From Rhodobacteraceae bacterium HLUCCA09 (GTDB lineage Bacteria > Pseudomonadota > Alphaproteobacteria > Rhodobacterales > Rhodobacteraceae): a stretch of DNA of 64,000 nucleotides. Positions 14,238 to 31,441 of this stretch are shown one piece after another. The stretch covers positions 2,472 to 66,471 of the forward strand of contig LJNT01000118.1 of the NCBI GenBank assembly GCA_001314685.1, in the 5' to 3' direction. A program made the position numbers and the translations under genes. The number at the start of each line of letters is the position of its first letter. Position 1 is the first letter of the stretch. The notes beneath the pieces are model-generated. The model was not told the DNA's origin. It was given only the letters and a program-made list of their open reading frames with translations, and did no database searches.

Positions 14238-15131
14238 CTACAGGAGCCGGCGTGGATCGGCGAGGTAGCGGGCATATGCAACGAGGAAGCGCGCGGCGTC
14301 AGCCCCGTTGATGACCCGGTGATCGTAGGAGAGAGCGAGCGGGGACATGGGGCGGGGCCGGAAGCTCTCGCCGTCCCAGACCGGCACCTGCTCTGTCCGG
14401 GTGATGCCGAGGATGGCCACCTCGGGCGGATTGACGATGGGAGTGAAGGCCGTGCCGCCGATGCCGCCGAGGTTCGAGATGGTCATCGAGGCGCCCCCCA
14501 TCTCGTCGGGCCGGACCTTGCGCGCCTGTGCCCGGTCCGCGAGATCGGCGATTTCGCCGGCGATCGCCAGCAGGCCCTTGCGGTCGGCGTCGCGGATCAC
14601 CGGCACCATCAGGCCGTGGGCGGTATCGACCGCGATGCCGACATGCACGTAGTCCTTCAGGATCAGCGTCTCGCCATCGGCCGAGAGCGAGGCGTTGAAC
14701 CGCTCGAAGTCCCGCAGGCAGCGCGCGAGCGCCTTGACGTGGAAGGCGAGCCTGGTCAGCCGCACGCCCTTTGCCCGCGCCTCGTCCTTCACCCGCGCGC
14801 GGAACGCCTCGACCTCGGTCAGGTCGGCGCGGTCGTGGTGAGTGACGGCGGGGATCAGCGCCTGCGCCGCGGCGAGGTTCCGCGCCGCGACGCGGGCGAA
14901 GCGGCTGACCGGCTCCTCGCGGACGGGGCCGAAGGCGGCGTGGTCGACGTCCCAATAGCTCGTGTCGGCGGTGGCGGGCGTGGCCTGCCCGGCAGAGCCG
15001 GTGCCTGTCACGTCTTCCCGGCCGATGGTCTCGCGGCCGAGATCGCGGGCGAGCGCGGTCAGGTCGACGCCGCGCTCGGCGGCGAGCTTGCGCACGGAGG
15101 GGCTGGCGATCACGTCTGCCATGCTCACCAC
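14238..15131 (-). CDS. 2-oxoacid/acetoin dehydrogenase E2 core without lipoyl domain (subunit-binding domain + acyltransferase catalytic domain)
   Basis: 297 aa. PSBD block [16 protein letters not shown]. Catalytic domain with [10 protein letters not shown] and [16 protein letters not shown]. No lipoyl-lysine (xDKA) motif. Confidence 0.85.
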
Positions 15132-16582
15132 TCCGCCGAAATGTACTGGGCTTCCATGAACTCGTGCATCCCCTCGTGGCCGCCCTCGCGCCCCAGCCCC
15201 GACTGCTTGGTGCCGCCGAAGGGCGCGGCCGGGTCTGAGACGAGTCCGCGGTTCAGCCCCACCATGCCGTAGTCGAGCCTTTCCGACACCTGCAGGCCGC
15301 GCCGGAAGTCGCCGGAGAAGACGTAGGCGACAAGGCCGTACTCGGTGTCGTTGGCGCGGCGGACCACGTCGCCCTCGTCGGTGAAGGTCTGGATCGCGGC
15401 GACCGGGCCGAAGATCTCGTCATGCACGCAGTCGGCATTCTCCGGCACGTCGGTCAGCACCGTGGGCGGGTAGTAGAAGCCGCGCCCCCCCGGCAACTCA
15501 CCCCCGATCCGCAGCGTCGCGCCCTTCGCTACCGCGTCCTGCACGAAAGCATGCACCTTGTCGCGCGTGTCGGCGTTGACGAGCGGGCCGACATCGACGC
15601 CCTCCTCCAGCCCGTTGCCCACCTTCAGCGCGCCCATCGCCTCGGTCATCTTCCGCGCGAAGTCTTCCGCCACCGCCTCGTGCACGTAGAAGCGGTTGGC
15701 GGCGGTGCAGGCCTCGCCCAGGTTGCGCATCTTGGCCAGCATCGCGCCCTTCACCGCCGCGTCGATGTCGGCGTCGTCGAAGACGATCAGCGGCGCGTTG
15801 CCGCCAAGTTCCATCGCGGGCTTCAGCACCTGGTCGGCGGCGCCGCGCAGGAGCTTGCGGCCCACGGGCGTCGAGCCGGTGAACGAGATCACGCGCACCC
15901 GCGCATCGTGCATCAGGTGGTCGACCAGCTTGCCCGTCTGCTGCGAGGGCAGAACGTTGACGAGCCCCTTCGGCAGGCCCGCCTCCTCCAGAAGCGGCAT
16001 CAGGGCGAGCATGGTCAGAGGCGTCTCGGAGGCGGGCTTGATGATGCAGGGGCAGCCGGCGGCGAGCGCGGGCGCCAGCTTTCGGGTGCCCATCGCGGCG
16101 GGGTAGTTCCACGGCGTTACCAGCACGGCGATGCCGGCGGGCTTGTGGTGGACGAGGATGCGGGCGCCGGTCGAGGGGCCGCGCGTCAAGAGCCCGTCAG
16201 CGCGCACGGCCTCTTCCGAGAACCAGCGGAAGAACTCGGCGGCATAGGCAGCCTCGCCCATGGCGTCGCCCCGCGCCTTGCCGTTCTCCAGCGTGATGAG
16301 GCGGGCGAAATCCTCCAACCGCTCGGTCATCAGCTCCCACGCTTTCCGCAGCACTTCGGCCCGCTCGCGCGGCTTCCGCCCCGCCCAGTCGGCAAAGGCG
16401 GCCTGCGCGGCGTCGAGCGCGGCGTCGGCATCTTCCAGCGTGGCCGAGGCGACGGAGGCCAGCACGCTCTCGTCGGCGGGGTTGATCACGTCGAAGCGCG
16501 CGCCGTCCGACCCGGTCCGCCAGCCGCCGTCGATGTAGAGGTCCGTCGGCAGCGTCTCGAAGGTTGCGTCGAGCTTGGTCAT
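15125..16582 (-). CDS. NAD(P)-dependent aldehyde dehydrogenase, succinate-semialdehyde dehydrogenase-like
   Basis: 485 aa from internal start [15 protein letters not shown], catalytic Glu in MELGGNAP, catalytic Cys in GEACTAANR. The upstream part of the 811-aa track ORF is read-through. Confidence 0.88.
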
Positions 16583-16596
16583 GGGTGCCTCCCGTA

Positions 16597-17952
16597 TCAG
16601 AGCAGGTGCCGCAGCGGCTCTTGCAGCCGGTCGGCGAGGCCCGAAAGCAGCGCCAGCGCCGCCTCCTCGGGCAGCGTGGCGTCGTGGGCGAGGTGCAGCG
16701 CCAGCGTGTCGCCGCGGCGGGTGATCGTCACCACCGGAACGGGCGCGGCGGCCGGTTTGATCCCTGTGAGCGCGGTGCCCGTCAGGTCGCGCAGGATCAG
16801 CTCGGGTCGGGCATCGCTTTCCGGCAGATCGGCCGAGACCGGCGCACGGTCGGGGTCGTTCCACGCGGTCGTGGTGCCGAGGGTGCCGGCGGCGACGGTG
16901 AGCGGGCCCGCGTGTTCGCGCGCCGCCCTCAGCGCCCCCGCCGCGAACGCGGCAAGGAGGCGCGGCGAAGAGGGCGCGGTGCCCTCTTCCTGCAGCCACG
17001 CGCGGAACGCGTCGAAGGCGGCGGCATCCACCTCTGCCGAGACGACGCCAACTGCGCCGGCGCCGGCCGCGGCTTGCGCCGGCGCGGCCTTGGGCAGGGC
17101 GCGCAGCGTCTCGAGGTCGGCCACGTGGAAGGGCGGCGCGTGGCCCGCCGCGACGAGATCGGCGAGGTCGAGCCCCTCCTCCGCCGCCAGCCTGCGCGCC
17201 CTGGGTGAGGCAAGGACGCGTCCGGCCGGCTTCGGCCCGGCGGCCGGGCGCGGTGTCGGCGGGGCCGTCCTGGCGGGTACGGGCGGCGGTGCCGGCTCGG
17301 CCCTTGCCGCCGGCGCGGCCTTCGGCGCCGGCGCCTCGGCCTGTGGCGCTGCCGCCATCGCCCGCCGGATCGGCGCCTCGGGCGCCTCGGCAGAGATCAC
17401 CGCGATGACCTGCCCCACCGGCACGTCGTCGCCCGCCTCGGCAAGGATCGCGGCGAGATAGCCCGCGCGGTCGGCCTCGACCTCCATCGTGGCCTTGTCG
17501 GTCTCGACCTCGAGCAGCGCGTCTCCCTCGGCCACGGCCTCGCCGGCCTCCTTGTGCCATGCCACCACGACGCCCGAATCCTGTGCCATGCCGAGCGCCG
17601 GCATGATCACCTCGTGCCCCTCGGGCACCGCCCCGGGCCCGCCCTGCGCCGGGCTCCCGGCGGGTGCCGGCCGCTCCGCGCCGGTCTCCACCGGCGCCGC
17701 TCCCGCGCGCTCCGCCGTCTCGGAGATGATCGCCACGATCTGCCCCACCGGCACGCTGTCGCCGGCCCCGGCCCGCACGTCGGCGAGATAGCCGTCATGG
17801 GCGGCCTCGACTTCCATCGTGGCCTTGTCGGTCTCCACCTCCATCAGCGCGTCGCCGGTCTTCACCGGGTCGCCCGGGTTCTTCAGCCACGAGACGATGA
17901 CGCCCGAATCCTGCGCCATGCCGAGGGCCGGCATGATCACCTCATGCGGCAT
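16597..17952 (-). CDS. Double-lipoyl scaffold protein: 2 lipoyl domains + subunit-binding domain + short degenerate E2-like C-terminal domain
   Basis: 451 aa. Two copies of EVIMPALGMAQDSGV...EVETDKATMEVEA. Ala/Pro linkers. PSBD LASPRARRLAAEEGLDL. C-terminal ~150 aa ends LAHDATLPEEAALALLSGL, aligned to DHRxxDG...FL. Confidence 0.8.
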   Translation of the reverse strand: MPHEVIMPALGMAQDSGVIVSWLKNPGDPVKTGDALMEVETDKATMEVEAAHDGYLADVRAGAGDSVPVGQIVAIISETAERAGAAPVETGAERPAPAGSPAQGGPGAVPEGHEVIMPALGMAQDSGVVVAWHKEAGEAVAEGDALLEVETDKATMEVEADRAGYLAAILAEAGDDVPVGQVIAVISAEAPEAPIRRAMAAAPQAEAPAPKAAPAARAEPAPPPVPARTAPPTPRPAAGPKPAGRVLASPRARRLAAEEGLDLADLVAAGHAPPFHVADLETLRALPKAAPAQAAAGAGAVGVVSAEVDAAAFDAFRAWLQEEGTAPSSPRLLAAFAAGALRAAREHAGPLTVAAGTLGTTTAWNDPDRAPVSADLPESDARPELILRDLTGTALTGIKPAAAPVPVVTITRRGDTLALHLAHDATLPEEAALALLSGLADRLQEPLRHLL

Positions 17953-18940
17953 CGGCCACCTCGCCCCTGACCGCGCGGCGCGCGGCCTTTGCCACCGCCT
18001 CGGGTGTCGGCACGGTCAGGTCCTCGAGCGCGGGGCTGAACGGCACGGGCACGTCCATCGCGCCCAGCCGCTGCACCGGGTAGTCGAGATGGTAGAACGC
18101 CTTCTCCGAGATGCGGCTGGCGATCTCGCCGGTGACGCCGAAATTGCGGTGCCCTTCGTCGATCACGATGGCGCGGGAGGTCTTCCTGACGCTCTCCACG
18201 ACGGTCGCTTCGTCGAAGGGCACCAGCGTGCGCGGGTCGATCACCTCGGCCGAGATGCCCTCGGCGGAAAGCGCCTCTGCCGCCTTCGCCGCCACCTGCA
18301 CCATCGACGACGTGGCGACGAGGGTAATGTCGCGCCCCTCGCGCAGGACGTTCGCCGCGCCGAAGGGGATCAGGTACTCCTCCTCCGGCACTGGCGCCTT
18401 GTCCTGGTACATCAGCTTGTCCTCGAAGATGACGACGGGGTTGTCGTCGCGGATCGCCGTCTTCATCAGCCCCTTCGCCTCGTAGGCCGACGACGGCATC
18501 GCCACCTTCAGCCCGGGGATGTGCGCCACCAGCGCGTGCAGCGACTGCGAGTGCTGCGCCGCCGAGCGCCGCGTCGCGCCCAGATTGGTGCGCAGCACCA
18601 TCGGCACGCTCAGCTTGCCTCCCGACATGTAGTGCTGCTTGGCCGCCTGGTTGCACAGCTGATCCATCACCAGATACAGGAAATCGCCGAACATCAGATC
18701 GACGATGGGCCGCGTGCCCGTCATCGCCGCGCCCACCGCCATGCCGACGAAGCCGGGCTCGGAGATCGGCGTGTCGATCACCCGCTCCGGCCCGAACTCG
18801 TCCACCAGACCGCTCAGCACCTTGAACGGCGTGCCCGCCTCGGCCACGTCCTCCCCGATCAGGAAGACCGACGGATCGCGCCGCATCTCCTCGGCGATGG
18901 CCTCGTTCACGGCCTTCGACAGCGTGATCTCGCGGGTCAT
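17942..18940 (-). CDS. acoB: TPP-dependent dehydrogenase E1 beta subunit (AcoB-like)
   Basis: 332 aa from MTREITLSKAVNEAIAEEMRRDPSVFLIGEDV. Transketolase-like pyrimidine-binding and C-terminal domains. 4-nt overlap with the E1 alpha gene. Confidence 0.88.
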   Translation of the reverse strand: MTREITLSKAVNEAIAEEMRRDPSVFLIGEDVAEAGTPFKVLSGLVDEFGPERVIDTPISEPGFVGMAVGAAMTGTRPIVDLMFGDFLYLVMDQLCNQAAKQHYMSGGKLSVPMVLRTNLGATRRSAAQHSQSLHALVAHIPGLKVAMPSSAYEAKGLMKTAIRDDNPVVIFEDKLMYQDKAPVPEEEYLIPFGAANVLREGRDITLVATSSMVQVAAKAAEALSAEGISAEVIDPRTLVPFDEATVVESVRKTSRAIVIDEGHRNFGVTGEIASRISEKAFYHLDYPVQRLGAMDVPVPFSPALEDLTVPTPEAVAKAARRAVRGEVADAA

Positions 18941-20025
18941 GCCCCGGCTCCCTTCGCGTATCCGTCGATGTAGGGCAGGGCGTGGTCGACCCCTGCGAAG
19001 ACGTGCATGTCCACCTCGCCCGCCTCGGGGTAGCTGGCGTTCAGAGCGTAGGCGACGGCCGCCTCGGCCTCCGCCCTGATCTCGTCGCCGATCGCCACGA
19101 GGTCGTCCGCCGACAGGATCCCCTCCGCCTCCAGCCACTTGCCGAAATTCACGATCGGGTCGCGCCGCTCCTTCCACTCCGCTTCCTCGTCCTTCGAGCG
19201 GTAGTAGTCGCGGTTGATGTCGCCCACGTGGTGGCCGTGGTAGCGGTAGGTATCGAGCTCCACGAAGAACGGCCCTTCGCCGTGGCGCGCACGCTCAACC
19301 AGTCGCTGCGCCAGCTCGTTCACCGCCAGCACCTCCTGCCCGTCGACCCTGTGCGCCTCGATCCCGAACGCCTCAGCGCGCGCGGTCAGCGAGCCGGCGG
19401 CGATCTCGTCGGTCCGGGTATACTCGGAATAGCCATTGTTCTCGCAGGCATAGATGACCGGCAGCTTCCACAGAGCGGCCATGTTCATCACCTCGTACCA
19501 CAGCCCCTGCGCCGTCGCCCCGTCGCCGAAGAAGCACACGGTGACGAAATCGCTCCCCTGCAGCTTCGCGCTCAGCGCCGCCCCCGTGGCGATCCCCATC
19601 GACCCGCCCACGATGGCGTTGGCGCCGAGGTTGCCGTGGGCCTGGTCGGCGATGTGCATCGAGCCGCCCTTGCCCCGGCAATAGCCCTCCTCGCGGCCGA
19701 GCAGCTCGCAGAACATCTGCCGGAACTCGGCCCCCTTCGCCACGCAATGCCCGTGGCCGCGATGGGTCGAGGTGATGCGGTCCTCGTCGGTCAGCGCCTC
19801 GCAGATGCCGACGGCCACCGCCTCCTGCCCCGAATACATGTGCGTCAGCCCCGGCATCTTCGCCGAGAGATAGAGCTGGTTCGCCTGGTCCTCGAAGGCG
19901 CGGATCTTCACCATCTGCCGGTACATCCGCAGATAGTCCTCCGTGTTCGCCTTCGCGGCCTTCGCGGCGCCCCCCTCCTTGCCGGAGCGGCTCCCGCCCG
20001 TCTTCTTCGCAGCCTGCGCGGCCAT
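18937..20025 (-). CDS. acoA: TPP-dependent dehydrogenase E1 alpha subunit (AcoA-like)
   Basis: 362 aa from MAAQAAKK. Blocks HMYSGQEAVAVG, STHRGHGHCVAKG, TPP motif GDGATAQG...ENNGY. Confidence 0.88.
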   Translation of the reverse strand: MAAQAAKKTGGSRSGKEGGAAKAAKANTEDYLRMYRQMVKIRAFEDQANQLYLSAKMPGLTHMYSGQEAVAVGICEALTDEDRITSTHRGHGHCVAKGAEFRQMFCELLGREEGYCRGKGGSMHIADQAHGNLGANAIVGGSMGIATGAALSAKLQGSDFVTVCFFGDGATAQGLWYEVMNMAALWKLPVIYACENNGYSEYTRTDEIAAGSLTARAEAFGIEAHRVDGQEVLAVNELAQRLVERARHGEGPFFVELDTYRYHGHHVGDINRDYYRSKDEEAEWKERRDPIVNFGKWLEAEGILSADDLVAIGDEIRAEAEAAVAYALNASYPEAGEVDMHVFAGVDHALPYIDGYAKGAGA

Positions 20026-20060
20026 CGCGCCCTCCCTCGGGAGCGGCGCGCGCCGCCCCC

Positions 20061-20118
20061 GTCTTCTTCTTGCGTCAAATATCCCCGCCGGAGGCATCGC
20101 CCCCGGCACGGGGGCGAT
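20061..20118 (-). repeat. Dispersed repeat copy B (GTCTTCTTCTTGCGTCAAATATCCCC) plus adjacent perfect hairpin ATCGCCCCCG-GCA-CGGGGGCGAT
   Basis: Read in the 92-bp spacer between the M24 gene stop (20118) and the acoA start (20025). Nearly identical core and layout at 55002-55052. Confidence 0.75.
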
Positions 20119-21416
20119 CAGTAGCGGTTGGCGATCGGCAACTCCTCGGCCGGGAACAGCGAGATCACCTCGCAGCCCGTATCCGTCACCACGACCTCCT
20201 CCTCGATCCGGGCGGCCGAATAGCCGTCCTTGGCCGGGCAGTAGGTCTCCAGCGCGAAGACCATGCCGGTCTCGATCTCCATCGGGTTGTCGAGCGACAC
20301 CGCGCGGGAGATGATCGGACGCTCGTGCAGCGCCAGCCCCAGGCCGTGGCCGAACTGAAGGCCGAAGGCCGACAATTCGTCGGGGAAGCCGAGGGATTCG
20401 GCCGTGGGCCACAGCTTGGCCACCTTGTCTGTCGTCACGCCCGGCTTGATCGCCGCGATGGCGTCGTCGAGCCACTCGCGCGCGCGGACGTAGGCATCGT
20501 TCTGCTCCGGCGTCGCGCGGCCGATGTTGAACGTGCGGTAGTAGCACGTCCGGTAGCCCTGGTAGGATTGCAGGATGTCGAAGAACGCCTGGTCGCCGGG
20601 GCGGAAGTAGCGGTCGGTGAAGTTGTGCGGGTGCGGGTTGCAGCGCTCGCCCGAGATGGCGTTGATGGCCTCGACGTCGTCGGACCCCATCTCGTAGAGC
20701 ATCTTGTTCGACAGCGCGACGATGTCGTTTTCGCGGATGCCCGGCTTCAGCTCCTCGTAGATCATGTGGTAGACGCCGTCGACCATGCTGGCCGCCTGCG
20801 TCAGCAGCTGGATCTCGTCGACGTTCTTGATCTCGCGGGCCGACAGCATGATCTGCTGGCCGTCGACCACCTTGATGCCGGCCTCCTGCAGGGCGAAGAA
20901 CATCGCCGTCTCGGCGTAGTCGACGCCCACGGGCATGTCCGCCACGCCCGCCTCGCGCAGCAGCGCCGCGATTTCCTCGGCATAGTGCTTCATCAGCCCG
21001 AAGGAGGGCGGGATCGTGCCGCGCATGCCGACGACGCCGGCGCGGCAATGCTCGGGGTCGAGCCAGTCGGCGTATTTCCTGTGGTGGACGGCGGCCGAGC
21101 CGAAATCCCACACGTAAGGCTCGGCGTCGCCGGCGAGCAGCGCGAAGCGGCACATCTTGTCGCGCTCCCACTCGCCGATCTTGGTGCCGCTGACGTAGCG
21201 GATGTTGTTGACGTCGAAGAGCAGGAGCGCGCCGCACTCCGAGCCCTTGAGCGCCTGCTTGGCGCGGCTGAGGCGGTAGCGGCGCAGGCGGTCGTGGTCC
21301 ACCCGGCGCTCGAAATCGACCGACGTGTGGCCCCAGGCGGGCAGCCGCCCTTCCCAGCGCCAGTTGGGGTCGAGGTCGGCGGGCTGCAGGATGCGGGGGT
21401 TCAGGGCCTGGTTCAT
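20118..21416 (-). CDS. M24-family metallohydrolase with creatinase-type N-domain (creatinase/DddP/DoeA-like); substrate unknown
   Basis: 432 aa from MNQALNPRIL. Pita-bread metal-ligand pattern (FFDILQ...D, HGLGLALHE, ALETY, RIEEEVVVT). Overall architecture as in DddP/creatinase. Confidence 0.75.
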   Translation of the reverse strand: MNQALNPRILQPADLDPNWRWEGRLPAWGHTSVDFERRVDHDRLRRYRLSRAKQALKGSECGALLLFDVNNIRYVSGTKIGEWERDKMCRFALLAGDAEPYVWDFGSAAVHHRKYADWLDPEHCRAGVVGMRGTIPPSFGLMKHYAEEIAALLREAGVADMPVGVDYAETAMFFALQEAGIKVVDGQQIMLSAREIKNVDEIQLLTQAASMVDGVYHMIYEELKPGIRENDIVALSNKMLYEMGSDDVEAINAISGERCNPHPHNFTDRYFRPGDQAFFDILQSYQGYRTCYYRTFNIGRATPEQNDAYVRAREWLDDAIAAIKPGVTTDKVAKLWPTAESLGFPDELSAFGLQFGHGLGLALHERPIISRAVSLDNPMEIETGMVFALETYCPAKDGYSAARIEEEVVVTDTGCEVISLFPAEELPIANRY

Positions 21417-21434
21417 GGGGTCGTCCTCCCGTGA

Positions 21435-21517
21435 GGCGTAGGGTGCATGCTCGTCACGCACCTTGGGTTGGTCGGTCGGCGGCGCGGACGGTGCGTGCAG
21501 AGCACGCACCCTACGCC
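21435..21517 (-). other. Structured intergenic element: two near-duplicate hairpins enclosed by a 7-bp outer stem
   Basis: Minus-strand RNA: GGCGUAG-[GGUGCGUGC UCU GCACGCACC]-27 nt-[GGUGCGUG ACGAG CAUGCACC]-CUACGCC. The RBS GGGAGGA and ATG 21416 follow. Confidence 0.6.
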
Positions 21518-21534
21518 CGCTACGCCCGCGGTCG

Positions 21535-24243: not shown

Positions 24244-24271
24244 TTGGCCGTGTATCCATATTGGATATAAT
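24244..24271 (+). promoter_or_regulatory. Candidate sigma70 promoter (TTGGCC-16 bp-TATAAT) overlapped by palindrome TATCCA-TAT-TGGATA
   Basis: -35 at 24244-24249, -10 at 24266-24271, palindrome at 24253-24267. Lies in the 296-bp divergent control region. Confidence 0.5.
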
Positions 24272-24418
24272 GATCTCCGAAATGAATACTTTTCGGGCAT
24301 CCCTGCTCACGCCTTCAGCGCAAGGTGTGCGCAGGCCGTCGGCTCACGCCGCGGCGAATCCCCTGCCGGGAGGACAGGCGGGGCCAGAATATCCAGAGGA
24401 ACCGGGAGGAGACCCAGA

Positions 24419-25372
24419 ATGAACATCCGCAGCATGCTCGCCGCCACCACCGCCGCCGGCATCGCGCTGGCCGGCGCCGCGACCGCGCAGGAGTACACGA
24501 TCGGCATCACGCAGAACAACGTGGGCGTCGACAGCTATCAGACGACCTACGAAAAGGCGTTCATCGCGGCGGCCGAGGCCAACCCCGACGTGCAGGCCGT
24601 GGTACTCGACGCCGGCGGCGACGTCGCCCGCCAGATCGCGCAGATGGAAGACCTGATCCAGCAAGAGGTCGACGCGATCATCATCTGGCCGACGAACGGC
24701 GAGGCGGTGATCCCCGTGGTGCGGCAGGCCTCGCAGGCAGACATCCCGGTGATCGTGACCAATTCGAACATAGCCGAGCAGGGCTTCGACTTCATCGCGT
24801 CGTTCTCCGGGCCCGACAACATCACGCAGGGCTCCCGCTCGGCCGAGATCATGTGCGACAAGTTCAAGGAGCTTGGCATCGAGGACGAGGCGCAGATCGT
24901 GCAGATCTCGGGCCAGCCGGGCTACACCACCGCCATCGAGCGGGCCCAGGGCTTCGAGGAGCGCCTGCCGGAGGTCTGCCCGAATGTCACGCTGGTCGAG
25001 ACCCAGCCGGGCGACTGGAACCGCGAGAAGTCGCAGCAGGTGATGGAAGCCTTCCTCGTCAAGTACGACGACATCGACGGCGTCTATTCGGGCGACGACA
25101 ACATGGGCGTGGGCGCGTTGAACGCCGCCAAGGCCGCGGGCCGCGACGGCATCATCTTCGTCGGCGCGACCAACTTCGCCGTGGGCTACGAGGCGATGGC
25201 GGCGGGCGATTACTGGGGCTCGATCTACCAGTCGCCGGTCGACGATGCCGAGGCCGCGCTCCAGACCGCGATCGACGTGCTGAACGACGAGGAAGTTCCG
25301 TTCCTCAACTACTTCGACACGCCGAAGATCACTCAGGACAACATGGACGAGTTCGAAAAGCCCGTCTTCTGA
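24419..25372 (+). CDS. Sugar/polyol ABC transporter periplasmic binding protein (RbsB-like, type I PBP)
   Basis: 317 aa. Signal peptide MNIRSMLAATTAAGIALAGAATAQE. Type I PBP pattern (IGITQNN..., DAIIIWPTNG, IPVIVTNS). Confidence 0.88.
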   Translation: MNIRSMLAATTAAGIALAGAATAQEYTIGITQNNVGVDSYQTTYEKAFIAAAEANPDVQAVVLDAGGDVARQIAQMEDLIQQEVDAIIIWPTNGEAVIPVVRQASQADIPVIVTNSNIAEQGFDFIASFSGPDNITQGSRSAEIMCDKFKELGIEDEAQIVQISGQPGYTTAIERAQGFEERLPEVCPNVTLVETQPGDWNREKSQQVMEAFLVKYDDIDGVYSGDDNMGVGALNAAKAAGRDGIIFVGATNFAVGYEAMAAGDYWGSIYQSPVDDAEAALQTAIDVLNDEEVPFLNYFDTPKITQDNMDEFEKPVF

Positions 25373-25386
25373 GCGAACCTCCCCTG

Positions 25387-25421
25387 GCGGCTGCGGGGCG
25401 CGCGCCCCGCAGCCGCTCTTT
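25387..25421 (+). terminator. Perfect 30-nt GC palindrome + TCTTT: intra-operon terminator/attenuator after the binding-protein gene
   Basis: GCGGCTGCGGGGCGCGCGCCCCGCAGCCGC at 25387-25416, followed by TCTTT. Sits 15 nt after stop 25372. Confidence 0.6.
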
Positions 25422-25448
25422 ACCCACAGGGTCCGCAGGGAGGACGGC

Positions 25449-26261
25449 ATGGGACGTGTATCGGGGCGTGTCTGCCTCGTGACCGGCGCGGCGCGCGGCA
25501 TCGGGCGGGCCATCGGCGAGGCGCTGCTCGAAGAGGGTGCGCTGGTCTGTTTCGCCGATCTCGACGGTGCGGGCGTGGCCGAAGTGGCCGAGGCCGCCAA
25601 CCGCCGTCTCAACGGCAACGCGGGCAACGCCATGGCGGCGGCGCTCGACGTGCGCGACCGAGCCTCGGTGCGAACCGCCATCGGGCAGGTCGTGGAGCGG
25701 TTCGGCCGGCTTGACGTTAAGTTCAACAATGCCGGCGTCAACCGGCCGATGAACTTCATGGACGTGACCGAGGACAACTGGAATTTCATCATGGGTGTGA
25801 ATGGTCTGGGCTGCCTGATCGGCATGCAGGAGGCCGCGCGCCAGATGATCGCGCAGGGGCGTGGCGAGGGCGGCGTGGCGGGCAAGATCGTCAACACCGC
25901 GTCGATCGCGTCCCGGCAGGGCTTCGACAACGTGGCGCCTTACTGCGCGTCGAAGTGGGCGGTCGTCTCGCTCACGCAGTCGGGTGCACGCGATCTCGCC
26001 CGCCATGGTATCGTGGTGACGGGGTTCGCCCCCGGCGTGGTGGCCACCGAGATGTGGGAGCAGGTCGACCGCGACCTGATGGAGATCGGCGCCGCCGAGC
26101 GCCCCGGCCAGGCGATGGAGGAGTTCGCCGCGGACATCCTGAAGGGGCGGGTGGCCACGCCAGACGACATCACGGGCACGACAACGTTCCTGGCCAGCAG
26201 GGACAGCGACTACATGACGGGGCAGATCGTGATGATCGACGGGGGCATGACCCTCGTCTGA
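25449..26261 (+). CDS. SDR-family oxidoreductase, BudC/sorbitol dehydrogenase-like (paralog of 21535-22341)
   Basis: 270 aa. VTGAARGIG, S...YCASK, FLASRDSDYMTGQIVMIDGG. Confidence 0.85.
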   Translation: MGRVSGRVCLVTGAARGIGRAIGEALLEEGALVCFADLDGAGVAEVAEAANRRLNGNAGNAMAAALDVRDRASVRTAIGQVVERFGRLDVKFNNAGVNRPMNFMDVTEDNWNFIMGVNGLGCLIGMQEAARQMIAQGRGEGGVAGKIVNTASIASRQGFDNVAPYCASKWAVVSLTQSGARDLARHGIVVTGFAPGVVATEMWEQVDRDLMEIGAAERPGQAMEEFAADILKGRVATPDDITGTTTFLASRDSDYMTGQIVMIDGGMTLV

Positions 26262-26309
26262 CGCGCCTGCCCGCCATTCGCCCAAGACGGGCACGGGAGG
26301 AGTTGAGCC

Positions 26310-27320
26310 ATGAGCGAGGCTGCGCAGGAAAGGTCTGCCCGCAATGCGGGGGGATCAAGCGGTGCGAAGGTGGGCACCTTCCTGGCGAAGCAGGGCATCC
26401 TGATCGCCTTCGTCCTGTTCATGGTCAGCTTCGCGCTGGCCAGCGAGCGGTTTCTCGACCCCGACAACATCCTCGGCGTGATCCGCTCCTCGGCGATCCT
26501 GGGCGTGATGGCGCTGGGCGTCACATTCGTGGTCATCAGCGGCAACCTCGACCTGTCGGTGGGCTCGCTGATGAGCTTTTCGACCATCGTGGTCCTCGAT
26601 CTGCACGATACGCTGGGGCCGGCGCTGGCCATCCTGGCGATGTTCGGCATGACGCTGGCGATCGGGGCGGTGATCGGGTTTCTCGTGGGATACCTGCGGC
26701 TGAACTCGCTGATCGTGACCCTGGGGATGCTCTCGGCCATCCACGGGCTGACGCTGACCTGGTCCGGCGGGCAGAACATGGATATCGCCGACAAGGCGGG
26801 CACATGGTTCGCGGTGTTCGGGCAGGGCAGGGCGCTGGGCATTCCGATGCCCATCCTCATGTTCGCGCTGCTCGCCGCGGTGCTGGGCATCGTGCTGGCC
26901 AAGACGCCTTTCGGGCGCAAGGTCTACGCGGTGGGGGGCAACGGGACGGCCGCCACCTTCTCGGGCATCCGGCGGGCGCGGACGGTGTTCACCTGCTACC
27001 TGATCTCGGCCTTCTGCGTGGCGACCGCCGGGCTGATCCAGGCGAGCCGGTCGATGGGCTCGCAGAACACGGTGGGCCAGGGGATGGAGCTCGAGGTTCT
27101 GGCTGCTGTCATCCTTGGCGGCGCATCGCTTATGGGCGGGTCGGGGACGATCTTCAAGACCGTCATCGGCGTGCTGATCCTCGGCTTCATCCAGAACGGG
27201 CTGCTGCTGATCGGGCTGCAATTCTACGTCCAGTTCGTGGTGACGTGGATCATCATCATCCTGGCGGTCTGGCTGGACATCGCGGCGAAGCGCGGCCGGC
27301 TGCTGTCGCCGATCGCTTGA
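26310..27320 (+). CDS. ABC transporter permease (RbsC/CUT2-type)
   Basis: 336-aa polytopic ORF. ISGNLDLSVGS motif typical of ribose-type permeases. Confidence 0.88.
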   Translation: MSEAAQERSARNAGGSSGAKVGTFLAKQGILIAFVLFMVSFALASERFLDPDNILGVIRSSAILGVMALGVTFVVISGNLDLSVGSLMSFSTIVVLDLHDTLGPALAILAMFGMTLAIGAVIGFLVGYLRLNSLIVTLGMLSAIHGLTLTWSGGQNMDIADKAGTWFAVFGQGRALGIPMPILMFALLAAVLGIVLAKTPFGRKVYAVGGNGTAATFSGIRRARTVFTCYLISAFCVATAGLIQASRSMGSQNTVGQGMELEVLAAVILGGASLMGGSGTIFKTVIGVLILGFIQNGLLLIGLQFYVQFVVTWIIIILAVWLDIAAKRGRLLSPIA

Positions 27321-27332
27321 GGAGGACGGACC

Positions 27333-28337
27333 GTGATGGCACCGGGCACATGGAGCACTTTCCTGCGCAGGGGGGCGATCTGGGCCTTCATCGCGCTCGA
27401 GCTCGCCTTCTTCTCGATCGCCGGAGAGTTCCTGTCGGTCTCCGACAAGGCGTTCATGAACTGGGACAACATGCTGCTTCTGCTGAAGCAGTCCGCGCCC
27501 CTGGGGATCATCGCCATGGGCATGACCCTGATCATGGTGAACGGAAACATCGATCTGTCGGTCGGCGCCATCTTCGCGCTGGCCGCCGTGATCCTGCTCG
27601 ACAGCATGACGTGGCCCTTCATGGCGGCGATGGGCGACTGGTCGTTCCTGCTGGCGTGGGTGTTCGCGCTGCTGGCGGGCGTGGCGCTGGGGGCGCTCAA
27701 CGGCTTCCTCGTTTGGAAGACGGGGGTCGACGCCTTCATCATCACGCTGGGGGCGATGCTGGGCTTTCGCGGCCTTGTCTTCATGTACAACGGCGAGAAC
27801 CCGACGAGCCACCTGAACTGGACGCTGGTCGACTTTGCCGAGGCGCAGTTCCTCGGCCTGCACACCGCGACGTGGTTCCTGCTGGTCGTCACGGCGGGGA
27901 TGTGGTGGCTGATGAACCGCACCGTGCACGGGCGGAACGCCTACGCCATCGGCGACAACCGCGAGGCGGCGGTGAACGCCGGCATCCGGGTGGGGCCGCA
28001 CATGATGATCAACTTCATGATCATCGGCTTCCTCGCCGCGCTCTCGGCGGTGGTGTTCTATTCCGAGAGCGGGTCGGTGAACCCCAATGACGGGATGCTC
28101 TACGAGCTGTGGATCATCACCGCGGTCGTTCTGGGCGGGACCAAGCTGACGGGCGGATCGGGCTCGATCATCTCCACCCTCGGCGGGGTGCTGGCGATCC
28201 AGATTCTGCGCCGCGGGCTCAACCATATCGGGGCCGACACGTCGACGGTGAACCTGGTGATCGGACTCATCCTGATCGCGGTTCTGTTCCTCGACCGCCA
28301 GCTCAACGTGAAGGGCAAGGAGGCCCTGAGGATATGA
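27333..28337 (+). CDS. ABC transporter permease (RbsC/CUT2-type), second copy
   Basis: 334 aa. VNGNIDLSVGA motif. GTG 27333 or ATG 27336 as start. Confidence 0.88.
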   Translation: MMAPGTWSTFLRRGAIWAFIALELAFFSIAGEFLSVSDKAFMNWDNMLLLLKQSAPLGIIAMGMTLIMVNGNIDLSVGAIFALAAVILLDSMTWPFMAAMGDWSFLLAWVFALLAGVALGALNGFLVWKTGVDAFIITLGAMLGFRGLVFMYNGENPTSHLNWTLVDFAEAQFLGLHTATWFLLVVTAGMWWLMNRTVHGRNAYAIGDNREAAVNAGIRVGPHMMINFMIIGFLAALSAVVFYSESGSVNPNDGMLYELWIITAVVLGGTKLTGGSGSIISTLGGVLAIQILRRGLNHIGADTSTVNLVIGLILIAVLFLDRQLNVKGKEALRI

Positions 28338-29848
28338 CCAGGCCGGCGCTGAGACTGGAGAACATCGTCAAGACCTTTCCGGGCGTTCGGGCGCTCGACG
28401 GCGTGTCGTTCGAGGTGCTGCCGGGCGAGGTTCACGCCCTGATGGGCGAGAACGGGGCCGGCAAGAGCACGCTGATGAAGGTGCTCGGCGGCATCCACCA
28501 GCCCAACGAGGGGCGCATCCTCGTGGGCGAGGAGCCGGCGGTGATGGCAAACCCGCTGGAGGCGAAGGCCAAGGGCATCGTGTTCATCCACCAGGAGCTG
28601 AGCCTCGCCGAGGAACTGAGCGTGGCCGAGAACATCTATCTCGGCGAGCTGCCGCGAAAGAGTTTCGGGCGGGTGGACTGGGCGACGCTCTACGCCCGCA
28701 CCGACGAGATCCTGAAGAAGCTGAAGGTGGGCTTCGACGCCCGCACCATGGTGGGCACGCTCTCCATCGCCAACCAGCAGATGGTCGAGATCGCCCGCGC
28801 GCTGACGGTCGACGCCAAGGCGGTGATCTTCGACGAGCCGACCGCCTCGCTGACGGATTCAGAGAAGGTGGTGCTGTTCGAGGTGATCGACGATCTCAAG
28901 AAAGACGGGGTGGGGATCATCTACATCTCGCACCGGATGGAGGAGATCTTCAAGATCACCGACCGGATCAGCGTGCTGCGCGATGGCGAGTACCGGGGCA
29001 CGCTGGTGACGAAGGAGACGACCGAGGACGACGTCACGCAGCTGATGATCGGCCGGTCGCTCGACCTGTCGCGCAATCACGAGCACGCGGAGGTGGGCGA
29101 CGTGGCGCTCGAGGTGCGGGGCCTCTCGTGCGGCGACCTCTATCGCGACATCTCGTTCGAGATCCGGCGCGGCGAGGTGGTGGGCTTCTACGGCCTCGTG
29201 GGCGCCGGGCGCACCGAGATCGCCGAGACGCTGTTCGGCCTGCGGGCGCCGTCGGCCGGGCAGATCCTGCTCGACGGCGAAGAGGTGCACCTGGGCTCGC
29301 CGGTCGACGCCATCGCGCGGGGGATTTCGCTGGTGCCGGAGGATCGCAAGGGGCAGGGCCTCGTGCTCGGCATGAACTGCCGGGACAACATGACCCTGCC
29401 GCAGGTGGGCGACCTGACCGCCGGCCCCTTTGTCTCGGACGGGGCCGAGATCGCGATCTTCGACCAGTACCGCGACAAGCTCGACATCCGCACGCCGGGG
29501 TGGCGGCAGACAGTAGGCAATCTGTCGGGCGGCAACCAGCAGAAGATCGTGATCGGCAAGTGGCTGTCGATGCACCCCACGCTCCTGATCGTGGACGAGC
29601 CGACGCGGGGGATCGACGTCGGCAGCAAGTCGGAGATTCACAAGCTGATCCGGCAACTGGCGAGCCAGGGCTACGCGGTGATGGTCATCTCTTCGGAGAT
29701 GCCCGAGGTGCTGCACGTGTCCGACCGGATCGTGGCGATGTATCACGGCGAACTCATCCGCACGTTCACCTCCGACGAGGTGACCGAGGACAGCCTGATC
29801 CAGGCGATCTCGGGCATCCGCACCGATGGCGGCGACAAGGCCGCGTGA
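28334..29848 (+). CDS. Sugar ABC transporter ATP-binding protein with duplicated NBD (RbsA-like)
   Basis: 504 aa from MTRPALRLENIVKTFPG. Walker A GENGAGKST and GLVGAGRTE. Signatures LSIANQQ and LSGGNQQK. ATGA overlap with the permease gene. Confidence 0.9.
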   Translation: MTRPALRLENIVKTFPGVRALDGVSFEVLPGEVHALMGENGAGKSTLMKVLGGIHQPNEGRILVGEEPAVMANPLEAKAKGIVFIHQELSLAEELSVAENIYLGELPRKSFGRVDWATLYARTDEILKKLKVGFDARTMVGTLSIANQQMVEIARALTVDAKAVIFDEPTASLTDSEKVVLFEVIDDLKKDGVGIIYISHRMEEIFKITDRISVLRDGEYRGTLVTKETTEDDVTQLMIGRSLDLSRNHEHAEVGDVALEVRGLSCGDLYRDISFEIRRGEVVGFYGLVGAGRTEIAETLFGLRAPSAGQILLDGEEVHLGSPVDAIARGISLVPEDRKGQGLVLGMNCRDNMTLPQVGDLTAGPFVSDGAEIAIFDQYRDKLDIRTPGWRQTVGNLSGGNQQKIVIGKWLSMHPTLLIVDEPTRGIDVGSKSEIHKLIRQLASQGYAVMVISSEMPEVLHVSDRIVAMYHGELIRTFTSDEVTEDSLIQAISGIRTDGGDKAA

Positions 29849-29861
29849 GGGGCGCCGATTG

Positions 29862-30731
29862 ATGCGGGTCGCTGTCGTCGGACTGGGGCGCATGGGCGCG
29901 CCCATGGCATGCAACCTCGCGCGGGCAGGGCACGACGTGGTGCTGTGGAATCGCACGCGCACCAAGACCGAAGCGCTGGCGGCAGAGATCGGCGCCCGGG
30001 TGGTCGAGACGCCCCGGGCGGCGGCGGCGGGCGCCAATGCGGTGGTGACGATGCTGGCCGACGATCCGTCGTCGGAGGCGGTGCATCGGGGGCCGGACGG
30101 CCTGTTTGCCGCCGGCGGGCCGCGCGTGCTGCTCGAGATGGGCACGATGAGCCCCGACCACATCCGCGCGCTAGCCGCCGAGGCGCCCGAGGGTGTGACG
30201 GTGATCGACGCGCCCGTGTCAGGGGCGACGCAGGCGGCGGCCGACGCGCAGCTGCTGATCATGGCGGGCTGCACCGATGACGGAGCGGCGCCGGTCCGGC
30301 CGCTCCTCGACGCGATCGGGCGCAAGACGATCTGCCTCGGCGCGGTGGGGGCGGGCGCGATCATGAAGCTCGCCGTCAATTCGCTGATCCACGGGATCAA
30401 TCAGACGCTGGCCGAGGCCGTCACTCTGGCCGAGGCGGCGGGCATCCCGCGGGCGGCGGCATTCGACGTGATCGGGGCCAGCGCGGCGGCGGCGCCGATG
30501 ATCGGCTACCGCAGGCCGCTCTACCTCGACGAGGCGGCGCATGACGTCACCTTCACGGTGGCGCTGGCAAAGAAGGACATGCGCGTCACGGCAGAATTGG
30601 CCGAGGCCCTGGGCACGGCGATGCCGCAGGGGCGCGTGACGCTGGAAATTCTGGAAGAGGCCGAGCGCGCGGGCTTCGGCGCGCGCGACATGGCCTCGAT
30701 CCTGTCGTTCATGGGGGAGAAGGCACGATGA
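29862..30731 (+). CDS. Beta-hydroxyacid dehydrogenase family oxidoreductase (3-hydroxyisobutyrate/tartronate-semialdehyde reductase-like)
   Basis: 289 aa from MRVAVVGLGRMGAPMACNLARAGH. DAPVSGA and GAGAIMKLAVN blocks. Confidence 0.85.
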   Translation: MRVAVVGLGRMGAPMACNLARAGHDVVLWNRTRTKTEALAAEIGARVVETPRAAAAGANAVVTMLADDPSSEAVHRGPDGLFAAGGPRVLLEMGTMSPDHIRALAAEAPEGVTVIDAPVSGATQAAADAQLLIMAGCTDDGAAPVRPLLDAIGRKTICLGAVGAGAIMKLAVNSLIHGINQTLAEAVTLAEAAGIPRAAAFDVIGASAAAAPMIGYRRPLYLDEAAHDVTFTVALAKKDMRVTAELAEALGTAMPQGRVTLEILEEAERAGFGARDMASILSFMGEKAR

Positions 30732-31441
30732 AGGCGGCGTTGTTCGTCGGCGGGTGGGAGGGCCACGCGCCCACCGACTTCGCCGACTGGTGCGGGGGGC
30801 TGCTCGCGGAGAACGGCTTCGAGGTCGACGTGCACGACACACTGGCGCCGCTGGCCGAGCCCGAGGGGATGCGGGACGTCGACCTGATCGTGCCGATCTG
30901 GTCGTCGGCGCGCTCGGCCCACCGCCCCGAATTCGGCACCATGACGAAGGACGAGGAAGACGGGCTGCTCGAGTCGGTGGGCAAGGGCTGCGGGCTGGCC
31001 GGCTGGCACGGGCACATGGGTGACGCCTTCCGCGACCGGCCGACCTACCACTTCCTGATCGGCGGGCAATTCGTGGCGCACCCGCCGGGCTGGCCCGACA
31101 ACCCCGTGCCGTCGGACGATTTCGTCGATTACGACGTGACGATCTGCAAGCCGCACCACCCGCTGGTGGAGGGCATCGGCAGCTTCCGCCTCCATTCCGA
31201 GCAGTATTACATGCTGGTCGATCCTTCGAACGAGGTGCTGGCCACCACGACCTTCTCGGGCGAGCATCTGTGGTGGATCGAGGGCACGGTGATGCCCGTG
31301 GTCTGGACGCGGCGCTGGGATCGCGGCCGCGTCTTCTACTGCTCGATCGGGCACACGCTCGACGACCTCAAGGTGCCGCAGGTGACCGAGATGATCCGGC
31401 GCGGCGCGCTCTGGGCCGCGCACGGCGCCAATCGGGCCTGA
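30728..31441 (+). CDS. ThuA-domain protein
   Basis: 237 aa. MKAALFVGGWEGH...GLAGWHG...FVAHPPG...VFYCSIGH pattern of the ThuA family. ATGA overlap with the previous gene. Confidence 0.75.
   Translation: MKAALFVGGWEGHAPTDFADWCGGLLAENGFEVDVHDTLAPLAEPEGMRDVDLIVPIWSSARSAHRPEFGTMTKDEEDGLLESVGKGCGLAGWHGHMGDAFRDRPTYHFLIGGQFVAHPPGWPDNPVPSDDFVDYDVTICKPHHPLVEGIGSFRLHSEQYYMLVDPSNEVLATTTFSGEHLWWIEGTVMPVVWTRRWDRGRVFYCSIGHTLDDLKVPQVTEMIRRGALWAAHGANRA

Follow-up and report, generated by a model that had tools for sequence, protein, structure and literature searches.

Which compound might Rhodobacteraceae bacterium HLUCCA09 break down with a set of fifteen genes that encodes a sugar-type ATP-binding cassette (ABC) importer, a dehydrogenase complex dependent on thiamine pyrophosphate (TPP) and lipoyl groups, and an enzyme of the M24 family? 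The genes lie in the 64,000-nucleotide stretch of contig LJNT01000118.1 analysed here (the window), where they form two divergent operons. Their best explanation, to which we give a probability of about 0.5, is a horizontally acquired, self-regulated catabolic island of two modules. The first module, which is swappable, comprises a CUT2 ABC importer, a short-chain dehydrogenase/reductase (SDR2), a dehydrogenase of the 3-hydroxyisobutyrate dehydrogenase (HIBADH) type and a ThuA-like protein. The second, the invariant core, comprises SDR1, a Cys-variant M24 enzyme, an AcoAB-like E1, a lipoyl carrier, a GabD-like aldehyde dehydrogenase (ALDH) and an E2 core that lacks a lipoyl domain. Both modules would be governed by a regulator that combines a winged helix with the fold of a substrate-binding protein (SBP). 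The scheme that we favor, also at a probability of about 0.5 and with every step inferred, would lead from import of a sugar- or polyol-like compound through an acyloin and an M24-catalyzed step to an acetyl-type coenzyme A (CoA) ester and a succinate-semialdehyde-like aldehyde.

Conserved core and interchangeable front ends

A scan of one genome per species found M24 relatives in at least 583 species, and the best 80 of these loci (86-100% M24 identity), from Rhodobacterales, Hyphomicrobiales/Rhizobiales and sponge or marine metagenome-assembled genomes, were analysed by calling genes with a locus-trained codon model and clustering the products. Two loci held too little training sequence, leaving 78. 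The M24 gene is directly followed by the E1α gene in every one of the 78, a recurrence far beyond chance. Of the other core genes, that for E1β was recovered in 73 loci, the lipoyl carrier gene in 71, and those for the ALDH and the E2 core in 52 and 50, respectively, with many loci cut off by contig edges. The conserved unit is M24-E1α-E1β-carrier(-ALDH-E2 core), and the importer, regulator and dehydrogenases at its front end are interchangeable and of at least four kinds.

Type A (31 loci) has the architecture of the window, to which a KduD-like SDR, a glycerate-kinase-like gene or lpdA is added in some loci. Of all genomes, that of Rhodovulum sp. 12E13 is nearest to the window. Type B (21 loci; Roseibium/Labrenzia and Paracoccaceae) carries LacI, OsmC, a HIBADH paralogue, a Liv-type ABC system, a zeta-like glutathione S-transferase (GST), YdcZ and an alpha/beta hydrolase upstream of M24, and often MoCo/Fer2 genes or a CUT1 ABC system downstream. 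The four Mesorhizobium loci of type C have a deaminase-like amidohydrolase, another CUT2 system and a HIBADH paralogue, with Lpd at the end, and the 5 loci of type D combine an SDR and a third CUT2 system with a regulator of the same family. Among the other 17 loci, 10 fit no type and 7 have too little upstream sequence. The first-pass annotation had treated all fifteen genes as one unit, which is not supported in that form: the order recurs in 31 other genomes, but the regulator and the operon of importer, SDR2, HIBADH-type gene and ThuA-like gene are swapped elsewhere. Given the 31 syntenic loci and the shared operator described below, it is improbable that the two operons are unrelated neighbors. 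The cluster is horizontally mobile. Type A clusters are found on plasmids of Phaeobacter, Tritonibacter, Marinovum and Pacificitalea (on pP92_e of P. inhibens the operon ends with lpdA), and the core operon is also abundant in marine and sponge metagenome assemblies.

The limits of the cluster in the window depend on careful gene calling, since at ~70% G+C the raw list of open reading frames (ORFs) is swamped by shadow ORFs. Shadow ORFs of 766-921 amino acids cross real genes in other frames at 15125-17560, 21535-24300 and 18937-21237, and because they are so long, calling genes by length would be misled. Raw ORFs were therefore replaced by genes called from a plot of G+C at third codon positions (GC3) by frame, candidate starts with Shine-Dalgarno-like sequences and codon statistics. 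This resolved fifteen genes that occupy exactly 14238-31441, eight on the minus strand (14238-24122) and seven on the plus strand (24419-31441), with gaps of -23 to +118 bp within the operons, translational overlaps included, and a divergent gap of 296 bp. The limits, the tight packing and the divergent arrangement are the same as those proposed from the ORF list in the first-pass annotation, and all of its family assignments were borne out by profile searches with Pfam and NCBIfam. None of the fifteen proteins scores above the cutoff of an NCBIfam equivalog (named-function) model; the sole NCBIfam model above cutoff is the E1β "subfamily" model PRK09212. The features are as follows.

14238-15122, minus strand: E2 catalytic core (PF00198 4e-76, PF02817; SYDHRVING motif)
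15125-16582, minus strand: NAD(P)-dependent ALDH resembling GabD/succinate-semialdehyde dehydrogenase (PF00171 1e-156)
16597-17952, minus strand: lipoyl carrier (Pfam Biotin_lipoyl twice, E3_binding); start uncertain, 17952 or 17934
17942-18940, minus strand: E1β of a TPP-dependent dehydrogenase (PF02779, PF02780)
18937-20025, minus strand: E1α resembling Aco/pyruvate dehydrogenase (PDH) proteins (PF00676 7e-76; GDG...NN TPP motif)
20118-21416, minus strand: M24 enzyme, Creatinase_N plus pita-bread fold (Pfam)
21535-22341, minus strand: SDR1, vicinal-diol/acyloin type (Pfam)
22368-24122, minus strand: regulator of 584 residues (SBP_bac_1 2e-27 at residues 229-497)
24123-24418, no strand: divergent control region, 296 bp (promoter scan, palindrome)
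24419-25372, plus strand: periplasmic SBP of the CUT2 ribose type with signal peptide (Peripla_BP_4 4e-52)
25449-26261, plus strand: SDR2, 2,3-butanediol dehydrogenase/acetoin reductase-like (SDR1 paralogue)
26310-27320, plus strand: ABC permease 1 (BPD_transp_2)
27333-28337, plus strand: ABC permease 2 (BPD_transp_2)
28334-29848, plus strand: tandem-domain CUT2 ABC ATPase (ABC_tran twice)
29826-30731, plus strand: HIBADH-family beta/gamma-hydroxyacid dehydrogenase (NAD_binding_2, NAD_binding_11)
30728-31441, plus strand: ThuA-like protein (PF06283 2e-41, 143 bits against a 33.4 cutoff)

G+C content is ~70% in the window overall, 66-68% within the cluster and 72-75% in the flanks. To the left (window 5855-13999) lie genes for a TetR regulator, a Mem_trans permease, FixG/CcoG, the P-type ATPase FixI/CcoI and YaaA, and to the right (31693-37032) those for RecQ, YggT, a lytic transglycosylase, SmpB and a methyltransferase, so that the insertion point has yaaA/fixI on one side and recQ on the other. 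Because of the drop in G+C and the housekeeping flanks, the cluster looks like an inserted island. Neither operon end is marked by a terminator-like site, the number of such sites being equal to that expected from shuffled sequence, and an Rfam scan of the window found no RNA family. ARAGORN called an 89-nt tRNA-Pro(CGG) at 60524-60612 on the plus strand; this is probably a false positive, because no Rfam tRNA matched at gathering score and the call lies inside a high-GC3 minus-strand ORF (60045-60938).

The M24 enzyme and the predicted E1/E2 complex

The M24 enzyme is the most conserved protein of the cluster, with 86-100% identity in the best 80 loci and 86-93% across orders. Between the window and Rhodovulum sp. 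12E13 it is 100% identical, 13 other cluster proteins being 90-97% identical and the lipoyl carrier having no qualifying match. Residue alignments to prolidases and to RlDddP map its site to D280, C291, H357, E390 and E405, that is, to four of the five canonical metal ligands with a Cys in place of the second metal-binding Asp, instead of the canonical dinuclear set Asp, Asp, His, Glu, Glu. Cys291 is invariant in 82 of 82 homologues (79 alphaproteobacterial, 3 actinobacterial). Among 30 more distant, full-length representatives with identities as low as 34%, 26 retain it and four have the canonical Asp. The family is large, with at least 573 clusters (50% identity) at E <= 1e-30.

An AlphaFold model of the enzyme (pLDDT 80.6) has RlDddP (4S01) as its best Foldseek match, with a TM-score of 0.77, followed by Xaa-Pro dipeptidases, DoeA and, more distantly, creatinase. 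With these enzymes (DddP, DoeA/EutD, creatinase and Xaa-Pro dipeptidases) it shares the two-domain fold and four of five metal ligands, and the alignment to DddP is full-length, yet identity to DddP is 22%, DddP Asp297 falls opposite a gap and the DddP base Asp377 aligns to His364. The M24 enzyme also differs from characterized members of the family in its invariant Cys, in its distance from every model cutoff (110 bits against 600 for DddP; 53-60 bits against 575-613 for the DoeA models; NCBIfam) and in its genomic partners, E1/E2 and HIBADH, which are unlike those of any of them. Numerous Arg residues are invariant across three divergent M24 families and therefore suggest an anionic substrate. 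The predicted reaction could be either a hydrolysis or a DddP-like elimination. The first-pass annotation had taken the M24 gene as a sign that the true substrate carries a hydrolysable C-N or ester-type bond, a view that is not supported in that form: M24 belongs to the core beside E1 whatever the importer. Its place in this invariant core, and its association with HIBADH and E1/E2 across three phyla, argue that it probably acts on a central intermediate and not on a peripheral bond.

The neighboring TPP-dependent E1 has affinities to both acetoin and pyruvate dehydrogenases. E1β scores 388 bits against PRK09212, the PDH E1β subfamily model (cutoff 321), and E1α scores 342 bits against TIGR03182 (cutoff 394), matching human PDH E1α at 1.7e-62 and the E1 of branched-chain 2-oxoacid dehydrogenase (BCKDH) at 3e-43. 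By pairwise identity to the best plasmid-borne relatives outside its own orthologue group, E1α shares ~47% identity with a Thermus protein annotated as acoA and with proteins of Acinetobacter and Enterococcus annotated generically as E1, against ~40% with those annotated as pdhA. The E1 orthologues are 75-89% identical to one another and only ~47% identical to canonical AcoA-type proteins; therefore, they form a distinct subfamily.

E2 is divided between two proteins. The E2 core consists of an E3/E1-binding domain and a 2-oxoacid_dh acyltransferase domain with the catalytic SYDHRVING motif and has no lipoyl domain; among NCBIfam models it scores highest, at 348 bits, with those of PDH acetyltransferases, and it passes none (cutoff 552). 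The lipoyl carrier bears a pair of lipoyl domains, with their DKA lysines at residues 43 and 153, then a peripheral-subunit-binding domain and, at its C terminus, a degenerate domain resembling E2. Its last 170-200 residues are conserved throughout the family alignment and end in EPLRHLL, and the C-terminal 200 residues align to the E2-core family along the whole core (hhalign probability 86%, E 4.8e-6), with the DHRVING of E2 opposite a non-conserved HDA-T, so that the catalytic motif is lost. The carrier thus combines lipoyl domains, a subunit-binding domain and a core-like domain without the catalytic His, and we read it as resembling the E3-binding protein (E3BP): lipoyl arms and a dead core domain would sit on one protein and catalysis on another. 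Eukaryotic PDH E2/E3BP (protein X) has the same combination of lipoyl and subunit-binding domains with an inactive core-like domain, and, as in E2/E3BP and in actinobacterial OdhA with its lipoyl-less E2 domain, the acyltransferase would use lipoyl arms in trans. The system described here differs from E2/E3BP in being bacterial and operon-encoded, in having an active E2 without any lipoyl domain and in its shortened dead domain (~170 residues); co-assembly of the two proteins is a prediction.

No part of the cluster falls outside known families, and as a whole it comes closest to the acetoin dehydrogenase enzyme system (AcoA/AcoB/AcoC/AcoL). Common to both are a heteromeric TPP-dependent E1α/β and lipoyl transfer by an acetyl-type E2, and, when 2,3-butanediol dehydrogenases (BDH) are included in the comparison, SDRs like BDH or acetoin reductase and an expected aldehyde co-product. 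The Firmicutes relatives described below also adjoin sigma54 activators with a MimR_N domain. The differences are several: (i) the lipoyl domains and the active 2-oxoacid_dh domain, which AcoC holds on a single polypeptide, are on separate proteins; (ii) the window has no AcoL, AcoR or AcoX gene, neither a dedicated E3 (AcoL) nor a sigma54 activator (AcoR) having been found there, with lpdA present in some orthologous loci and sigma54 activators only in the Firmicutes relatives; (iii) M24 is always in the operon and a GabD-like ALDH lies between the two E2 halves; and (iv) the cluster has a sugar-type ABC importer, an SBP-fold regulator and its own tightly conserved E1 subfamily.

Front-end module, regulator and control region

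The importer is a CUT2 system in its composition, with a Peripla_BP_4 SBP, two BPD_transp_2 permeases and a duplicated ABC ATPase, as in RbsABC and the xylitol/threitol importer of M. smegmatis. Unlike those systems it reaches no equivalog cutoff (SBP 114 bits against 337 for the RbsB model; ATPase ~545 bits against the AraG and RbsA models, under their cutoffs), and the SBP is only ~30% identical to its nearest ligand-defined PDB entries, ribose- and xylitol/threitol-type SBPs at ~1e-29 to 1e-32. Orthologous clusters replace it with Liv-type, CUT1 or other CUT2 systems. The two SDRs are 48% identical. SDR1 best matches, in the PDB, a diacetyl reductase/L-2,3-butanediol dehydrogenase (2.6e-45) and then sorbitol dehydrogenases; SDR2 matches 3wye, 3a28 and 1geg, of the 2,3-butanediol dehydrogenase/acetoin reductase type, at 1e-50 to 1e-56 and scores 247 bits against TIGR02415 (cutoff 304).

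A PDB sequence search places the ALDH nearest to E. coli GabD (3jz4, 1.5e-134), with sulfolactaldehyde dehydrogenase 8c54 (2e-122) and a 2,5-dioxopentanoate dehydrogenase also close; it scores 533 bits against the succinate-semialdehyde dehydrogenase (SSADH) model TIGR01780 (cutoff 646) and 492 against PRK11241 (cutoff 828). The HIBADH-type enzyme is nearest to PDB entries 3pef and 3pdu (~1e-36), which are labelled as HIBADH-family only and which we take to be the Geobacter 4-hydroxybutyrate/succinate-semialdehyde reductases. Its nearest NCBIfam model is tartronate-semialdehyde reductase, and that of sulfolactaldehyde reductase also matches. The ThuA-like gene has no ThuB-type partner in the window and stays beside the SBP gene in a Devosia locus from which SDR2 and the HIBADH-type gene are absent.

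Between the operons, a promoter scan found the sole sigma70-like site in 18 kb, TTGGCC at 24244-24249 and TATAAT at 24266-24271 with a spacer of N16, pointing towards the SBP gene. A perfect palindrome, TATCCATATTGGATA (TATCCA-N3-TGGATA), at 24253-24267 overlaps its -10 box. With at most two mismatches, this palindrome occurs in 30 of 40 regions upstream of regulator genes, against 2.75% of random 650-bp segments, and there it often stands in two copies 21 bp apart. The site and the palindrome are bracketed by a perfect 10-bp inverted repeat, TTCATTTCGG at 24221-24230 and CCGAAATGAA at 24277-24286. In a hexamer search, the TTTCGG half-site positions of this repeat were matched only in the Rhodovulum sp. 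12E13 locus, without the CCGAAA arm, and the repeat may be lineage-specific.

The regulator fuses an N-terminal winged-helix-like region (~residues 60-108) to a CUT1-type SBP-fold sensor, which in a PDB sequence search is closest to the CUT1 sugar/polyol SBP 5iai (1.5e-30). It most likely binds TATCCA-N3-TGGATA, a predicted operator overlapping the importer promoter, and probably acts there as a repressor. The conservation of the palindrome upstream of the regulator supports one regulator acting on both operons, in agreement with the shared control region and single regulator first proposed for this locus.

Relatives in other phyla, proposed pathway and alternatives

The association of M24 with HIBADH-type and E1/E2 genes extends beyond the Alphaproteobacteria. 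Actinobacterial plasmids encode M24 homologues of 53-64% identity in related clusters. That of Streptomyces sp. YIM 121038 has genes for LacI, a HIBADH-type enzyme, M24, a GabD-like ALDH, VOC, an E1α-β fusion and a lipoyl-less E2, together with flavin reductase, LLM monooxygenase and an NMT1-type ABC system. In Paenarthrobacter SD-1 the set includes a full-length E2, E1α-β, VOC, an oxygenase of the acyl-CoA dehydrogenase (ACAD) type, amidase, a Liv-type ABC system, RidA, HIBADH-type, M24 and flavin reductase genes. On a plasmid of Paenarthrobacter sp. R1 (NZ_CP127116.1, ~12190-19458), overlapping RidA-M24-HIBADH genes, then SDR and LpdA, lie directly downstream of the sulfonamide genes sadABC/sulR (ACAD-type monooxygenases and the flavin reductase SulR/SadC). 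The papers on sulfonamide degradation (sad) that were consulted do not mention adjoining M24, HIBADH, SDR or LpdA genes, and the BR1 paper has only yjgF (RidA-family), as a putative regulator without proven function.

Anaerobic Firmicutes (Ihubacter massiliensis, Anaerovoracaceae, Thermoanaerobacteraceae) have M24 homologues of 48% identity in M24-HIBADH(-cupin-SSF) operons with sigma54/MimR_N activators, which we presume to be AcoR/MimR-like, beside E1α-E1β-E2(-E3) operons with a full-length E2. On one metagenomic Firmicutes-like contig (L095, 1-13308), a single co-directional run encodes an Fe-dependent alcohol dehydrogenase (Fe-ADH), an HpaB-family protein, NifU, a Peripla_BP_4 protein, a butyryl/4-hydroxybutyrate CoA-transferase-like protein, E1α, E1β, E2, E3, M24, HIBADH and Amidohydro_2, with LplA, a sigma54 activator and RpoN downstream. 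The trio of Fe-ADH, HpaB-family protein and CoA-transferase would be that of the classical route from 4-hydroxybutyrate to crotonyl-CoA in strict anaerobes (AbfH, AbfD, AbfT). The genes of this contig, with the GabD-like ALDH of the aerobes, point to succinate semialdehyde, 4-hydroxybutyrate or a close analogue as the product of the pathway.

More distant Cys-M24 proteins (38% identity; Actinomycetota; three loci) are translationally coupled to PPDK_N/PEP-utiliser proteins and have D-2-hydroxyacid dehydrogenases, Amidohydro_2 proteins, Gfo/Idh/MocA enzymes and NitT-type ABC systems as neighbors. Their contexts are those of oxidised polyols or hydroxy acids, not of peptides, and they may represent a separate uncharacterized system. 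In one protein (P0309), a Cys-M24 domain is fused to a D-2-hydroxyacid dehydrogenase.

We propose that a sugar- or polyol-like compound would be imported and that the BDH-like SDRs would oxidise its vicinal diol to an alpha-hydroxyketone (acyloin). M24 would then act on a central anionic intermediate, by metal-assisted hydrolysis or by a DddP-like beta-elimination. E1 would split the acyloin (or a 2-oxo compound) and load a short acetyl-type acyl group onto the lipoyl arms of the carrier, from which the E2 core, probably co-assembled with the dead domain of the carrier as in eukaryotic E2/E3BP, would pass it to CoA. The released succinate-semialdehyde-like aldehyde would be oxidised by the ALDH or interconverted with its hydroxyacid by the HIBADH-type enzyme. 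In the window, E3 would be borrowed from the housekeeping Lpd, and some orthologous loci encode their own. The logic from diol to acyloin to TPP/lipoyl chemistry to aldehyde had been suggested in the first-pass annotation; the affinities of the SDRs, E1α, E2 and ALDH support it, while its mechanism is still one that we infer. By sequence, both the importer and the sensor of the regulator are of the sugar/polyol type.

Several observations weigh against this scheme. The ALDH and the E2 core are absent from some loci, among them those of type D and some of type B, and some front ends are not sugar-like (Liv-type ABC system with GST and alpha/beta hydrolase; MoCo/Fer2; amidohydrolase). The actinobacterial contexts include amidase, RidA, flavin monooxygenases and NMT1-type ABC systems and, with the type B and C front ends, hint at N-heterocyclic or sulfonated precursors. 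The trio on the Firmicutes-like contig would correspond to the AbfH/AbfD/AbfT route on an assignment in which AbfD is recognized by family membership alone. The N terminus of the regulator yields only sub-threshold winged-helix-turn-helix matches (HTH_20, MarR, TrmB; E 0.01-0.1), and a PDB sequence search with it returned nothing useful. E1 could equally be a 2-oxoacid dehydrogenase, E1β passing the PDH subfamily model, and the roles of M24 and ThuA are left unexplained by the scheme. Finally, no experiment or paper that we found ties any ortholog to a substrate.

That E1 affinity is one ground for a route through a 2-oxo acid, in which M24 would release or dehydrate a hydroxy acid, the HIBADH-type enzyme, ALDH and SDR would convert it to the 2-oxo acid, and E1/E2 would decarboxylate this oxidatively. 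Such a route is unlikely, though it accounts for the adjacent or overlapping M24 and HIBADH-type genes of Actinobacteria and Firmicutes, for the lactonase-like alpha/beta hydrolase or Amidohydro_2 genes that recur nearby, for the D-2-hydroxyacid dehydrogenases fused or adjacent to the distant Cys-M24 proteins and for the many invariant Arg residues that suggest an anionic substrate. One form of it would be the orphan pathway of pantothenate/pantoate degradation, reportedly described by Goodhue & Snell (1966), Magee & Snell (1966) and Airas (1979), with pantothenase as M24, pantoate 4-dehydrogenase as HIBADH, aldopantoate dehydrogenase as the GabD-like ALDH, dimethylmalate oxidation by the SDR and 2-oxoisovalerate dehydrogenase as E1/E2. 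In favor of this fit, the pantothenase protein was still unidentified in 2023 (PMC10393543). Against it, the SSF transporter of the Firmicutes, with 69 bits where the PanF cutoff is 328, is no pantothenate symporter, and genes for handling beta-alanine are absent. A second form would be a non-phosphorylative sugar-acid route in which M24, like DddP, catalyzes a beta-elimination and serves as a dehydratase. Against either form, E1α is nearer to Aco/PDH than to branched-chain E1, E2 is acetyl-type, the SDRs are diol/acyloin-like, and the importer and sensor are sugar/polyol-type. A further alternative would be a plain acetoin/2,3-butanediol cluster, with two BDH, AcoA, AcoB, a split AcoC and an acetaldehyde dehydrogenase, and with M24, HIBADH, ThuA and the importer as accessories or passengers: the SDRs are nearest to characterized butanediol/acetoin reductases, E1α is ~47% identical to an acoA-annotated protein, E2 is acetyl-type, and the regulators that we take to be AcoR/MimR-like (MimR_N/sigma54) flank the Firmicutes relatives. 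We nevertheless consider this quite unlikely. An accessory would hardly be the most conserved protein and stand immediately upstream of E1α in 78 of 78 loci, as M24 does; E1 is a distinct subfamily, the ALDH is GabD-like and not an acetaldehyde dehydrogenase, and AcoR and AcoX are missing. A high-affinity sugar-type importer and a polyol-type sensor are ill-suited to a freely diffusing C4 diol, and no paper was found that links Rhodobacterales orthologs to acetoin.

The remaining alternatives invoke heteroatoms. If the substrate were an N-containing sugar-like or heterocyclic compound (an iminosugar, hydroxylated pyridine or piperidine, ureide or ectoine-like cyclic amidine), M24 would open or trim a C-N bond as DoeA or creatinase does, and the skeleton would yield acetyl-CoA and succinate semialdehyde. 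The pathways of pyridine, vitamin B6 and trigonelline degradation do end in succinate semialdehyde and SSADH; DoeA and creatinase, small-molecule M24 enzymes that cleave amidines or guanidines, are both structural neighbors; and RidA, amidase and flavin-monooxygenase genes in Micrococcales (directly downstream of sadABC), MoCo/Fer2 hydroxylase genes in type B and the deaminase-like amidohydrolase in type C fit as well. These accessory genes vary by phylum, however, and may belong to neighboring pathways, the cluster in the window has no oxygenase, aminotransferase, deaminase or ammonia/urea-handling gene, and the homarine operon homABCDER is a different gene set, all of which makes a nitrogenous substrate very unlikely. 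A C3 sulfonate such as 2,3-dihydroxypropanesulfonate (DHPS) seems extremely improbable. Here the SDRs would be HpsO/HpsP-like 2-dehydrogenases, HIBADH and ALDH would be the reductase and the dehydrogenase of sulfolactaldehyde, M24 would be a DddP-like lyase eliminating sulfite, and E1/E2 would convert a C3 keto compound to acetyl-CoA. DddP as the nearest solved fold, the ALDH match to 8c54 at 2e-122, the HIBADH match to YihU-type models, the NMT1-type SBP and LLM monooxygenase in the Streptomyces cluster and the marine, alga-associated hosts are consistent with it. The argument is pure analogy, though; the catalytic Asp377 of DddP aligns to His in the M24 family, a sulfite exporter or dehydrogenase was not recognized among recurrent neighbors (no scan was aimed at them), and a recent review of sulfoquinovose and sulfonates mentions no E1/lipoyl or peptidase-family enzyme.

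Other candidates were rejected. Although it encodes a "peptidase" and an ALDH, the homarine operon homABCDER (PMC13236597) is a different gene set, with FAD enzymes. Autoinducer-2 (AI-2)/DPD, 6-deoxy sugars, Amadori compounds, mycosporines, vitamin B6, carnitine/gonyol and purine ureides each account for part of the gene set only. Literature on acetoin with M24, acetoin in Rhodobacterales, Xaa-Pro peptidase, homarine, sad genes, DHPS and pantothenase, covered in part, contained no orthologous cluster, and an earlier description is possible. With no equivalog model passed and no orthologous cluster with a substrate in that literature, the pathway can still be called uncharacterized, as it was at first sight.

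Relative to known systems, what is new is the combination: Cys-M24 is an obligatory partner, E2 is split in an E3BP-like manner, a GabD-like ALDH is embedded, the front ends are modular, and the linkage with HIBADH extends across phyla. Tentatively, at slightly less than even chances, we suggest that Cys-M24, HIBADH and Aco-like E1/E2 form an undescribed catabolic route for a common sugar-like metabolite in Alphaproteobacteria, Actinobacteria and Firmicutes, with M24 as a non-peptidase (C-N/C-O hydrolysis or beta-elimination) and with a split E2. If this is true, the route may supply the genes for an orphan pathway, e.g., pantothenate/pantoate degradation, or a new sink for marine exometabolites. 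The core operon is widespread (at least 583 species representatives, and roseobacter plasmids), with each gene annotated only generically. Solving the pathway would show what is done by a large M24 subfamily that is at present misannotated as "Xaa-Pro peptidase," would document a bacterial split E2/E3BP-like lipoyl-dependent complex and would possibly explain the unassigned genes directly downstream of sadABC in Microbacterium and Paenarthrobacter. It would also name a carbon source that is exchanged in association with algae, with sponges and in the gut.

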